A stretch of DNA of 64,000 nt from Gammaproteobacteria bacterium (GTDB taxonomy: Bacteria; Pseudomonadota; Gammaproteobacteria; Eutrophobiales; Eutrophobiaceae). A program made the translations under genes and the position numbers. The DNA is taken from the NCBI GenBank assembly GCA_011772965.1, contig WVYN01000021.1:23243-87242 (forward strand). Reading direction: 5' to 3'. The stretch's first letter is position 1; every line of letters starts with the position of its first letter. Positions 59,984-64,000 of this stretch are shown piece after piece. The notes beneath the pieces were generated by a model, which had not been told where the DNA came from, did not search any database, and worked only from the letters and a program-made list of their open reading frames with translations.

Positions 59984-60895
59984 ATGAAAAATACAAATGT
60001 TCTATATGCGCACGAAGTATCTTTCAAGGGGTTTGAACAGCTGGAAGTAGAAATTGATCCTGAGCACAAAGCTGTGTGGCTGTATTTCAATGCAGAACCG
60101 AGATCCTGTTTTACACTCACTCTGTTGAATGAACTCGACAGGTTTCAAGAAATGATTAAACAGCGTGAAGGTAGATTGCCTTGGAACGGTGAACTGGTTG
60201 ATATTGAGTATAATGTCATTACCTCGCGCCATTCGGTATTTAGTTTTGGTGGTGATCTTGATTATTTTATCCAATGCATTGAAAAAAATGATCGGCAATC
60301 ACTGAAACAGTATGCCAAGGCATGCATAGATGCCATCTATTATCATCACATTGGTCGGGAAGTAGGGTTAACTACTATATCACTTGTTCATGGCAATGCA
60401 TTAGGCGGTGGCTTTGAAGCTGCATTATCAAGCAATGTGATTGTTGCAGAACGTAGTGCCGAGATGGGCCTACCCGAGATTCTGTTTAACCTGTTTCCTG
60501 GAATGGGAGCCTTTAATCTCCTGTCTCAGAGAGTATCTGCCAAAGAAGCCGAGAAAATGATGCTTAGTGGCCGCTTATATACGGCAGAAGAGATGTACTA
60601 CAAGGGAATAGTTGATCATCTTGTTGAAGATGGTCTGGGACGTGAGACGATAAACTCGATCATTCGTGGTAATGCAAAACATAAAAATGCGATCGACGCT
60701 ATCCGACACGTTCGACAAATGTCCAATCCTATTGATTATGATCTTTTGATGGAGATTGCTGACCTTTGGGTTGAGTCTGCATTTAGGTTATCTGATAAGG
60801 ACAAGCGTGTTATGAAGCGTCTGGTTAATAGCCAGGTTCGTTTTGCCGAGAACACCAATCCACCGGCAGCATCAGCACTCAGGGTTGCTCAGTGA
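59984..60895 (+). CDS. rpfF: RpfF-like DSF synthase (crotonase superfamily)
   Basis: PRSCFT, FSFGGDLDYF, GNALGGGFEAALS..IVAE...MGLPEILFNLFPGMGA with both catalytic Glu, and W...A..L...D...M.RLV..Q tail, matching Xanthomonas RpfF as recalled; converges on an RpfC-like kinase. Confidence 0.87.
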   Translation: MKNTNVLYAHEVSFKGFEQLEVEIDPEHKAVWLYFNAEPRSCFTLTLLNELDRFQEMIKQREGRLPWNGELVDIEYNVITSRHSVFSFGGDLDYFIQCIEKNDRQSLKQYAKACIDAIYYHHIGREVGLTTISLVHGNALGGGFEAALSSNVIVAERSAEMGLPEILFNLFPGMGAFNLLSQRVSAKEAEKMMLSGRLYTAEEMYYKGIVDHLVEDGLGRETINSIIRGNAKHKNAIDAIRHVRQMSNPIDYDLLMEIADLWVESAFRLSDKDKRVMKRLVNSQVRFAENTNPPAASALRVAQ

Positions 60896-60973
60896 GTAAC
60901 AGAAACAGTTTCATTGTTACATTCTGATTAATTCCTGGATCAGATACATCATGATCTATCAAGGAGTCGAAAA

Positions 60974-62050
60974 ATGGACTATCAAAAGATAAAGCAGCTA
61001 CGTGCCGCTGTTGTTAAGTACACAGATAAGTCGGACAGTAAGGCGTGGTTTCTTTTTGTCGCAGACATTTCAATGTACATCGCTGCAATTTCAGGTATTA
61101 TTTTTCTTGAAAATATTTACGCCAGGATTCTTTGTGCATCGCTGGCAGGTTTCAAGATTGCATCAATATTTGTGATTGCACATGATGCTGCACATGACAG
61201 TTTCGTGAAAAATAAATTCATGAATAAAGTCATAGCACGCATGTCATTTCTGCTTTCATTACATAATTACAGTCTTTGGTTAATTGCTCATAACCGTTCG
61301 CATCATCAAATGACGAACATCAAGGGTCCGAATTCATGGTCGCCTTTGTCATATGATGATTATCAACAGCTTTCAGCTTGGAGAAAGATAGTTGAGCGTG
61401 TTTATCGCACACCAATCGGCATACCCATCTATTATCTGGTTGAACGCTGGTGGAGAGACAAGTTTTATCCTTACAACAGACTTGTTAGTGGTGATAAAAC
61501 AATACACTTCCTGGATTTTTCCATGATATTAGTTTATTTGACGGCTTTCCTGTCACTACTTGTCTTTGCAGGGTTAAATGTCGCACACACCACCCCGATT
61601 GAACTGTTGATACTGGGTTTCATTATTCCCATGCTGGTTTCAGCATTCATGATAGGATTTACTGTTTACTATCAACATACGCATGAGACCATTCCATGGT
61701 TTAGATCAGATGATGAAAGATCTGTAATGGGTGGTGTAGATGAGTTAACCATGCATGTACGATTTCCACATTGGTATAATCTGATTAGCCATAACGCCAT
61801 GGAGCATACGGCTCATCATGTGGATCCACGTATTCCTTGTTATTATCTGGACAAGGCCCAGGCTGAGATAGCAAGGGTATTGGGCGATGAACTGGTCACC
61901 ATGAAATATTCACTACCTGCGCTTCTCAGAACTATGAAGAATTGCAAGTTATATGATTATGAAGAGCACTGTTGGCTGAATTTTAGTGGAGAACCGACCA
62001 CTTCAACAATATTGCTTGATGAGAGCACTAAATTTGTATTTGCCGCATGA
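60974..62050 (+). CDS. Membrane fatty-acid desaturase (Delta12/omega-6 DesA-like)
   Basis: Three His boxes HDAAH, HNRSHH, HTAHH, plus QHTH and IPCYYL; TM segments. Confidence 0.9.
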   Translation: MDYQKIKQLRAAVVKYTDKSDSKAWFLFVADISMYIAAISGIIFLENIYARILCASLAGFKIASIFVIAHDAAHDSFVKNKFMNKVIARMSFLLSLHNYSLWLIAHNRSHHQMTNIKGPNSWSPLSYDDYQQLSAWRKIVERVYRTPIGIPIYYLVERWWRDKFYPYNRLVSGDKTIHFLDFSMILVYLTAFLSLLVFAGLNVAHTTPIELLILGFIIPMLVSAFMIGFTVYYQHTHETIPWFRSDDERSVMGGVDELTMHVRFPHWYNLISHNAMEHTAHHVDPRIPCYYLDKAQAEIARVLGDELVTMKYSLPALLRTMKNCKLYDYEEHCWLNFSGEPTTSTILLDESTKFVFAA

Positions 62051-62106
62051 GTTGATGTTAATAGACCATGTGGTTTATGCAGGTTCAGGATAAATTAGAT
62101 ATTGAA

Positions 62107-64000
62107 CTAGACAGCAGCCGACTTATGCTTATCAAGGAAGGTTAACAGTGCCTTCTTTGTCTCTTCATATATGGATTTCAGTTCAGGCTGTTGTTTTTTC
62201 GCCCGTAAAATATTATCAGCATGCATGAGCTTGTTGATATTATTCGCCATAAAACCAAGTCGTTGTGCACCGATACTCCTTGAACTACCATCCAGAGTAT
62301 GGCTGTGATCCCGTACTTTATCCTTATCTGCTCTGTCAAGATCGGTCTCAATATTATTTATAAGCTTCTCGGCATTTGAAAGGTATTCCTGGATTAATTC
62401 CTGCATAAAGTCATAATTATCTGCCATCCTTGCGATAGATTTCAGAATATCCATATCCATTAGATCCACTTTATAAGGATCATTAGAACTGACTACTTTA
62501 AGTGTTATCTTATTGTTTGATTTTTCGGATATTTTAGGGATTTCCCGGGTCAATGACTCAATCGTGTTGAGCAGTTTCTCAGGTTCAACCGGTTTTGTGA
62601 GATAAGCATCCATCTGCGCATCCTCGCAGGCGGCCAGAGCCTCCTTTGTCGCATTTGCGGTCAACATTACGAAAGGAATATATTTCCTATGTGGATTTGT
62701 GAACCTGAATAACTTGGTCGCATCTATCCCGCTCATGACGGGCATATGCATATCTACAATAACAAGATCAAAATCCTTACTATCCAGAGCGTCCAGTACC
62801 TCCTCACCGTTTTCAACAACTGTTACTTTATGTTGATGATGTTCAAGTATTTTGCTTATTACGAGCTGATTTATCGGGTTATCTTCACCAATCAATATAT
62901 CAAGAGATTTTGATATTCCGGAATAGTTGCCTTTATTTTCTCTGGCCGCAATATATCCTGGTGCTGCTGATAGCTTATTAGTTTCAACAGGTTTAATCAG
63001 TGAATGTAATGTTCGGAATAATATTAGACGGTAAGGCTTGCTGCCTATGACAGAGGAATATCCCTCTGACAGGAATTCTGTTTTCTGTTGCTCATCACAT
63101 TCATCATCGATTAATACAAACTTAAATTTATGTAATAAACCTTTCTCGTCGATTGTTTTTATAAATTGCAGCGGATCAGTATCCAGATATTTCTGGAAAA
63201 CAAGTATTACCATGCATGCAGAAGAATTCTTTTTCTCAAGGAGTGTGAAAGCCTCATGAGCATCCGCAGCAACCACATAATTTGCTTGCCAGGTCTTCAG
63301 ATGCTCTTCAACAGTCTGACTGTATTCAGCCCTTGAATTTACCAGTAGCAGATTTATATGGGAGAAAATACTGCTGACTGCTTTTTCTTCCGAGAGAATA
63401 TTTTGTTTTTCCAGTGTGACTTCAAACCAGAATGTTGAGCCTTTACCCAATTCACTCTCAAGCCCCATCTCACCCTGCAATAATTCCACTAGTTGTTTAG
63501 CTATTGCCATGCCAAGGCCAGTGCCACCATATAGCCGGGTAGTAGTTCCATCGGCCTGTGAAAATTTTTCAAAAATTTTCTTGTGAGCTTCCTGTGGAAT
63601 TCCAATGCCAGTATCATTGACCTCAAAACGTAATTTAATCGTATTTGAAGTCGAACTTATTGGATTGATCCTGATATCAATTCCACCTATCTTGGTAAAT
63701 TTGACAGCATTACTAATGAGATTTACCAGTATTTGGCGAAGATGCTGTGAGTCACCCTTGAGTAGAAATGGAATTTCTGGGGAAATATATGTATTAAATT
63801 TAAGGCCTTTTTTACCGGCCTCCGGCATTAATATCTCAGATGTTGAATTAACAAGTGTATGAAGATTGAAATTAATATTTTCTTTATCAATTTTCCCTGC
63901 CTCAATCTTCGAGATATCTAGAATGTCATTTATTAGTGAGAGTAGGACTCTGGCTGATGACTGTATCGTATGTGTAAATTCCTTCTGTTCAGGATTTAAC
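62107..64000 (-). CDS. rpfC: RpfC-like hybrid sensor histidine kinase (HisKA end, HATPase, degenerate REC, REC, HPt); 5' end outside the window
   Basis: Frame is open to the window edge (LNPEQKEF...[15 protein letters not shown]). [28 protein letters not shown]...GEEVLDAL...VIVDMHMP...LTANA...YLTKPV; HPt [13 protein letters not shown]. Confidence 0.8.

Follow-up and report, generated by a model that had tools for sequence, protein, structure and literature searches.

Near the right end of a 64,000-nucleotide stretch of a Gammaproteobacteria bacterium genome (contig WVYN01000021.1, positions 23,243 to 87,242; hereafter the window), a quorum-sensing locus of diffusible signal factor (DSF) type carries a putative fatty-acid desaturase gene directly behind its signal synthase gene. 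This type of locus is known; what is new, as judged from sequence comparison, is that an accessory desaturase is recurrently paired with the synthase. An earlier note on this DNA had described an rpfF-like synthase gene with both catalytic glutamates, followed after a 78-nt gap by the gene of a three-His-box membrane desaturase with its own AAGGAG ribosome-binding site (RBS), the pair converging on an RpfC-like hybrid kinase and preceded by ispF where rpfB might be expected. These gene identities and their arrangement were borne out in every described point. The linkage between desaturase and synthase is recurrent as well as conditional, across two receptor types. In the best of the explanations weighed here, the acyl chain of a DSF-family signal would be tailored by the desaturase, a reading that we put forward tentatively and at somewhat less than an even chance.

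The synthase is a crotonase of the RpfF type, encoded by a 303-aa open reading frame (ORF) on the plus strand (59984-60895). It matches Pfam ECH_1 with 78 bits and NCBIfam NF006452/PRK08788 with 334.8 bits (above the cut-off of 177), and it stays under the cut-off of the NCBI RpfF equivalog NF053515 (235.9 vs 550 bits). The closest solved structure is Xanthomonas RpfF (3m6m, E = 7e-58), and further solved relatives are 7zq7 and the Burkholderia/Cronobacter-type RpfF entries 6dgn and 5fus, the latter aligning with E = 3.5e-41. In the structure-database alignment, the GGGFE and GLPE motifs pair with residues 157 and 177 of the 3m6m chain, which we take to be Glu141 and Glu161 of the Xanthomonas protein on the assumption that the chain has 16 extra N-terminal residues. 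The corresponding catalytic glutamates of the window synthase, E145 (GGGFE) and E165 (GLPE), are kept in 48 of 48 aligned homologues.

Facing this gene from the minus strand is that of an RpfC-like hybrid sensor kinase, whose C-terminal 630 residues lie inside the window (62107-64000). The whole gene (L004:3350-5908, minus strand; 852 aa from M22) would end at window-equivalent position 64665. Pfam recognises HisKA, HATPase, REC and Hpt domains, the phospho-site motifs SHEIRTP, DMHMP and HTLDGS are intact, and the N-terminus holds about five hydrophobic segments within residues 54-200. A homologue that is 97% identical measures 852 aa, which suggests that M22 is the true start; in the sequence TAATG, it shares bases with the stop codon that ends the upstream Smr-domain gene. 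Several of the 72 homologues of kinase residues 22-215 are labelled RpfC by PGAP/JGI, names that are automatic only. Given the family and structure matches of the synthase, its intact glutamate pair and a hybrid kinase with a membrane input domain, the window locus is a genuine DSF-type quorum-sensing locus.

The desaturase gene lies between the two, on the same strand as the synthase gene (60974-62050), and encodes a membrane di-iron desaturase-family protein of 358 aa that matches Pfam FA_desaturase (PF00487) with 93 bits (cut-off 29.7). Its sequence shows four hydrophobic spans. The histidines of its three His boxes (H70DAAH74, H106NRSHH111 and H278TAHH282) are invariant across 52 desaturase sequences, as is the C-terminal motif C324-K-L-Y-D-Y..H..W. 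A fused or split gene as the source of this protein was ruled out, since 119 of 120 listed homologues span 346-381 aa and the remaining one 324 aa. The enzyme falls outside the Bacillus DesA/DesB (Delta-5, Delta-10) types, scoring 80 bits to NF052548 and 44 bits to NF052549 against cut-offs of 500 each, and it is not a Pseudomonas-type DesA either; the DesA-family gene of this genome is a different one, on contig C9. Like acyl-lipid omega-6/Delta-12 desaturases, with which it shares the Pfam family and the three His boxes, it is best classed as a putative omega-6/Delta-12-like, oxygen-dependent membrane enzyme, a class assignment in which none of the matches predicts substrate or regiochemistry.

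Synthase and desaturase are probably co-transcribed, as the 78-nt spacer between them (60896-60973, plus strand) is short and consensus scans found no terminator-like or promoter-like site in it. Its predicted fold is unremarkable (z -1.10), the AAGGAG of the desaturase (60961-60966) ends 7 nt before the ATG at 60974, and in eight relatives the same spacer measures 11-94 nt. In the proposed mechanism, the RpfF-type synthase would make a cis-2-unsaturated fatty-acid signal from intermediates of fatty-acid synthesis, and the RpfC-type membrane kinase would sense the DSF signal. The desaturase, inserted behind the synthase gene and probably transcribed with it, would work on the acyl chain of the signal, adding another double bond or performing another di-iron oxidation before or after RpfF acts, and carriers of the desaturase would emit a modified DSF-family signal.

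Linkage of the two genes was surveyed in 125 species genomes of the family to which the window belongs (E <= 1e-30; the genomes are related and many are incomplete). The synthase is present in 59 and the desaturase in 28 of them, all 28 being among the 59, and none of the 66 synthase-less genomes carries the desaturase (0/66). In 26 of the 28 carriers, the two genes are adjacent on one strand with the synthase first; in G481, each of them sits at a contig end. Conversely, 31 of the 59 synthase-bearing genomes are without the desaturase.

Beyond this home family, one genome per prokaryote species was scanned with an alignment of the desaturase as query, which gave 370 relatives, of which the best 80 were taken with flanks of up to 4 kb. 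These are the loci nearest the query, and shares among them are not population frequencies; L027 is truncated by a contig end, and a match of 44 residues in L064 is left out of the flank count. Of the 80, 29 have a synthase homologue within the flank, in 19 cases in the home arrangement. Five of the 29 are Oxalobacteraceae-type loci (Undibacterium, Noviherbaspirillum and metagenome-assembled genomes) with the order desaturase - synthase, facing a 665-aa PAS-GGDEF-EAL protein that passes the NCBI PdeR/PRK10060 model (957 bits, cut-off 782), which we take to be the family of RpfR. Three are alphaproteobacterial loci (Kiloniellales/Rhodospirillales labels) with the order DUF4442 - desaturase - gap - synthase, facing a hybrid kinase, where the gap measures about 0.6-0.8 kb and a short ORF is called in two of the three. 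In the last two (L058, L060), synthase and desaturase are a few kb apart. A second, unrelated family, that of Undibacterium terreum, was surveyed in 201 genomes: the RpfR-type synthase (at least 57% identical to that of Undibacterium) is present in 13, the close desaturase type (at least 40% identical) in 7 and both in 6, of which three have them adjacent and three on separate contigs of fragmented assemblies, while G600 has the desaturase alone.

Going by gene content and order, three lineages show the pairing, in three different layouts and with two receptor types. It is therefore not unique to this genome, the case that the earlier note had named as one that would count against it, but is found in 26 of the 125 home-family genomes as well as in Oxalobacteraceae and Kiloniellales-like alphaproteobacteria.

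Further support comes from the desaturases themselves. In a quick maximum likelihood tree of 76 sequences (5 of 81 dropped for covering fewer than 300 query residues; SH-aLRT support, midpoint root), synthase-linked desaturases fall into separately placed groups with unlinked sequences between them: a home clade (20 sequences, support 96), an alphaproteobacterial group (99), an Oxalobacteraceae group (99) and L093. The latter, the locus of G006, has the home gene order and a desaturase from the other deep branch, which shares 38% identity with the window enzyme, 52% with that of Undibacterium and 61% with the same-slot desaturase of G016. Two desaturase types that are 38% identical to each other are thus found at the same slot in different home-family genera, and that two divergent types occupy one slot argues, as far as sequences can, that the slot needs a desaturase. 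In the synthase tree (48 sequences, with the partial copies of L026 and L060 dropped; quick search, SH-aLRT only), home-family copies linked to a desaturase are divided between two clades, and those with no such link make up a third (support 98).

This distribution bears on the alternative that the gene was inserted into a permissive spacer between converging genes and passively inherited, with no functional tie. Insertions are tolerated in convergent spacers, and some genomes have lost the desaturase gene, carry it unlinked or keep it in decayed form (G002, G515). Yet the three lineages that show the pairing differ in gene order and receptor, the presence of the desaturase is conditional on the synthase in two separate families and a second desaturase type occupies the same slot, which makes passive insertion the least probable of all the explanations considered.

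Several observations weigh against signal tailoring. The desaturase gene is dispensable: in G002 it lies 154 kb from the synthase, and G515 retains beside its synthase (G515:C21:5425-5838) only a 165-aa desaturase remnant with one TGA and one TAG inside, likely a pseudogene. The desaturase family, as sampled here, is not DSF-specific either, given that 50 of the 80 best loci have no synthase in their flank (one more is cut at a contig end); their neighbours include DUF4442, a Crp-like regulator, an AMP-binding ligase and an M3 peptidase together with an ABC1 kinase. In an even draw of 400 genomes across the class, the synthase is present in 66 (the unpublished genome G318 among them), the desaturase in 15 and both in 6. 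The adjacent pair occurs in only three of the 66 synthase-bearing genomes, all of the home family, and in the other three with both genes these are unlinked, 110 kb and 190 kb apart on one contig in two cases and on different contigs in the third. Among the 48 synthase homologues, only two alignment columns, both weak, split desaturase-linked from unlinked copies. Membrane His-box desaturases are known to use lipid- or CoA-bound chains rather than chains on acyl carrier protein (ACP) or free acids; direct action on the substrate or product of RpfF therefore needs an activation step, which is not encoded at the locus. Lastly, a 2026 paper reports that the thioesterase activity of RpfF controls membrane lipid synthesis and homeostasis (PMC13660987).

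The latter point belongs to the chief rival of signal tailoring, in which the desaturase would be a membrane-lipid enzyme on the lipid-homeostasis side of RpfF, co-expressed with the synthase and adjusting the unsaturation of phospholipids or the membrane around RpfC at any time that the synthase is on. Its premise is that RpfF, through its thioesterase, taps acyl-ACP pools and changes the synthesis of membrane lipids, and it can draw on the regulation of fatty-acid synthesis by that thioesterase (PMC13660987) as well as on the disturbed membrane integrity upon RpfF loss (PMC8659556). The protein comparisons point the same way. Close homologues of the desaturase are automatically named acyl-lipid omega-6 (Delta-12) desaturase by JGI, and the best solved fold for its AlphaFold2 model (52-sequence alignment, mean pLDDT 90.2) is the FAD-like subunit in the Ycf2/Orf2971-FtsHi complex of Chlamydomonas (8xks_K), a full-length match at a TM-score of 0.78 and 21% identity in which the C-terminal motif is aligned; AlkB (0.48) and the stearoyl-CoA desaturase SCD1 (0.39) follow. 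The many family loci with no synthase nearby (50 of the best 80) also favour a role in membrane lipids, and the nested distribution within the home family fits it as well as it fits signal tailoring.

Speaking against a membrane role are the other lipid genes of this genome, which encodes FabA (298 bits, cut-off 238) and two further PF00487 genes besides the rpf-linked one, one of which passes the NCBI DesA-family model (603.5 bits, cut-off 400). Since FabA and a DesA-family desaturase are also encoded, the rpf-linked desaturase is, by its predicted gene complement, accessory and not the housekeeping route to unsaturated fatty acids; the possibility that it is the sole such route was accordingly rejected. 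Moreover, 33 of the 59 synthase-bearing home-family genomes are without an adjacent desaturase (the gene is missing from 31 and lies at a distance of 154 kb in one, and in another the pair is split over contig ends), and the repeated placement beside the synthase in three lineages, together with the second type in the slot, indicates a closer tie than membrane upkeep. On balance, we regard the membrane role as a serious rival that is somewhat less likely than signal tailoring. Should the desaturase serve membrane lipids after all, this would support the recent view that RpfF serves lipid homeostasis no less than signal synthesis.

Two side observations concern these lipid genes. The third PF00487 gene (G000:C80:70887-71558; L102:1405-2355; 316 aa) scores 98 bits to the DesA-family model against the cut-off of 400 and sits between a FAD-oxidoreductase-like gene and a histidine kinase gene. 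Elsewhere (G000:C84:32393-33469; L128:1033-3234), the genome encodes an Aas-like acyl-ACP synthetase/acyltransferase with 778 bits to PRK08043 (cut-off 886); such a protein could charge ACP or phospholipid with free fatty acids and is thereby a candidate link from the acids made by RpfF to a lipid-acting desaturase.

A third rival starts from the upstream side of the locus, where the earlier note had seen no rpfB gene: no acyl-CoA ligase gene is present upstream of the synthase, and none was seen at the locus including its downstream extension. Under this explanation, which we consider improbable, the desaturase would inactivate or turn over the signal in place of the Xanthomonas acyl-CoA ligase RpfB. 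Known DSF turnover, however, runs via CoA activation and beta-oxidation-type enzymes, a FadD-like ligase gene adjoins a FadB-like gene elsewhere in this genome, and it would be futile to place a quencher and the synthase in one operon. In favour of turnover, aside from the missing rpfB, oxidation could lower the activity of the signal, as the dienoic DSF-family signal CDSF is reported to have less activity than DSF in Xanthomonas (PMC4542539). For comparison, four DSF-inducible genes, the operon digABCD, are described in a DSF-quenching isolate (PMC9973270).

What signal tailoring would entail chemically is best seen from the enzyme class and from the signals already known. Enzymes of the omega-6/Delta-12 class introduce their double bond three carbons on from one that is already present. 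It is conceivable, if unlikely, that the desaturase is a cassette for diversifying signals, which moves from one DSF locus to another and turns a cis-2 acyl chain into a 2,5-diene. If so, it would constitute a dedicated oxygen-dependent route to CDSF-like dienoic signals, giving carriers a private channel and folding oxygen availability into quorum sensing. CDSF itself, cis-11-methyldodeca-2,5-dienoic acid, is a DSF-family signal with a second double bond that in Xanthomonas depends on RpfF and the fatty-acid synthesis cycle, and the passages covered describe no dedicated desaturase (PMC4542539).

How the window locus relates to characterised systems can be read from its layout. In Xanthomonas campestris, the rpf order is rpfB-rpfF >< rpfC-rpfH-rpfG. 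As there, a synthase with both glutamates (3m6m) converges on a multi-span HisKA-HATPase-REC-Hpt kinase, to which relatives of the window genome add a REC-HD-GYP gene. Unlike there, the window has ispF upstream in place of rpfB and a desaturase between synthase and kinase, with no rpfG found in the genome; its synthase also scores under the RpfF equivalog cut-off, and its kinase is longer by about 170 residues in the part from HATPase to REC. The Oxalobacteraceae loci instead resemble the Burkholderia cenocepacia pair RpfF(Bc)/BCAM0581 and RpfR in combining a synthase of the NF006452 family (382.7 bits) with a PAS-GGDEF-EAL protein, and differ from it in the desaturase directly upstream of the synthase; the window, by contrast, uses an RpfC-type kinase.

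That no characterised rpf cluster with an embedded desaturase was known, as the earlier note had it, agrees with the literature searched, in which no description of a desaturase gene in an rpf locus was found; supplements, which lay outside this search, could hold gene-neighbourhood tables. The genes rpfF, rpfC and rpfG have been noted in a free-living non-xanthomonad gammaproteobacterial sulfur oxidiser, strain Hiromi 1 (PMC4136832), in a paper where the word desaturase has 0 occurrences. In the accessible portion of a 2015 review of the DSF family, "desaturase" is used only for RpfF's own dehydratase activity.

In the current view, RpfF makes DSF signals on its own from intermediates of fatty-acid synthesis, and their diversity is ascribed to precursor supply. 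If signal tailoring is true, an enzyme that is conserved in, and exchanged between, DSF loci would add a second layer of signal diversity, comparable to the acyl-chain variety of acyl-homoserine lactones. Two cultured strains, Undibacterium terreum CGMCC 1.10998 and Noviherbaspirillum humi U15, carry the pair, which makes the question directly testable.

The type of the locus can be read from 20 loci that have a synthase homologue and no adjacent desaturase (8 from the home family, 1 second copy in the sister species and 11 from other families of the class). The kinase converges on the synthase in 19 of the 20, a REC-HD-GYP homologue lies behind the kinase in 14 (by tblastn; the architecture was verified by Pfam in one locus, L018), ispF precedes the synthase in 11 and an Smr gene is at the far end in 9. 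These neighbour counts make ispF - rpfF >< rpfC - rpfG - smr the base arrangement in this part of the Gammaproteobacteria. Accordingly arranged loci correspond to a Xanthomonas-type DSF system without rpfB, with the desaturase as an insertion between synthase and kinase. A related side observation comes from the sister species of the same genus (L112, G001:C36), where a short contig carries a second, divergent synthase gene (39% identical) and, converging with it, the gene of a second hybrid kinase, with no desaturase.

On the right-hand side of the locus, where the earlier note had directed the search for the membrane region of the sensor and for rpfG, the former is in place with its roughly five segments, and the latter is absent there, though present at that place in relatives. 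Beyond the window (contig C71 of this genome, L004:3350-6447), the kinase gene is directly adjoined by smr and then purL, and a search with the RpfG-like protein of relatives found a REC-HD-GYP gene neither next to the kinase nor anywhere in this genome. All that this search turned up was one GAF-HD-GYP protein on contig C77 and one REC-PAS-GGDEF-EAL protein on C84, which are possible cyclic di-GMP outputs in this genome. Within the kinase itself, the stretch of about 170 residues between HATPase and REC (approximately residues 440-610; L004:3350-5971, minus strand) has no Pfam match.

Of the remaining features, ispF (59222-59689, plus strand) is a conserved upstream neighbour that we count as context outside the system; it is found directly upstream of the synthase in relatives too, as seen by tblastn. 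The upstream spacer that follows it (59690-59983, plus strand, 294 nt) contains the synthase RBS AAGGAG at 59970-59975, and a promoter before the synthase was not identified, the consensus scan giving weak matches only (4 vs a shuffle mean of 8.3). At the other end, the converging desaturase and kinase genes are separated by 56 nt (62051-62106). A plus-strand hairpin at about 62042-62074 overlaps the desaturase stop codon and folds with -18.1 kcal/mol (z -2.09; 5 of 200 shuffles fold equally well), which is a weak terminator candidate only, because it is not followed by a T-run.

Among the 81 loci made up of the 80 best desaturase-family loci and the window locus, seven (L031, L032, L035, L036, L048, L054 and L072) have a gene for a DUF4442 (YiiD_C-like hotdog) protein immediately upstream of the desaturase gene, with or without a synthase. 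YiiD_C proteins of Xanthomonas have been called malonyl-ACP decarboxylases (PMC12093956), and the desaturase family may generally pair with acyl-ACP-acting enzymes.

Elsewhere in the window, a 1219-aa ORF at 17943-21602 has no NCBIfam match at E <= 1e-30. Positions 39389-47405 and 50894-52567 hold a run of genes typical of the methylotroph serine cycle, comprising a BhcA-like aspartate/serine-glyoxylate aminotransferase (604 bits against a cut-off of 650), a CitE/malyl-CoA-lyase-like protein, both subunits (beta and alpha) of malate-CoA ligase, a glyoxylate/hydroxypyruvate-reductase-like protein and PEP carboxylase, with a formate-tetrahydrofolate ligase gene nearby.

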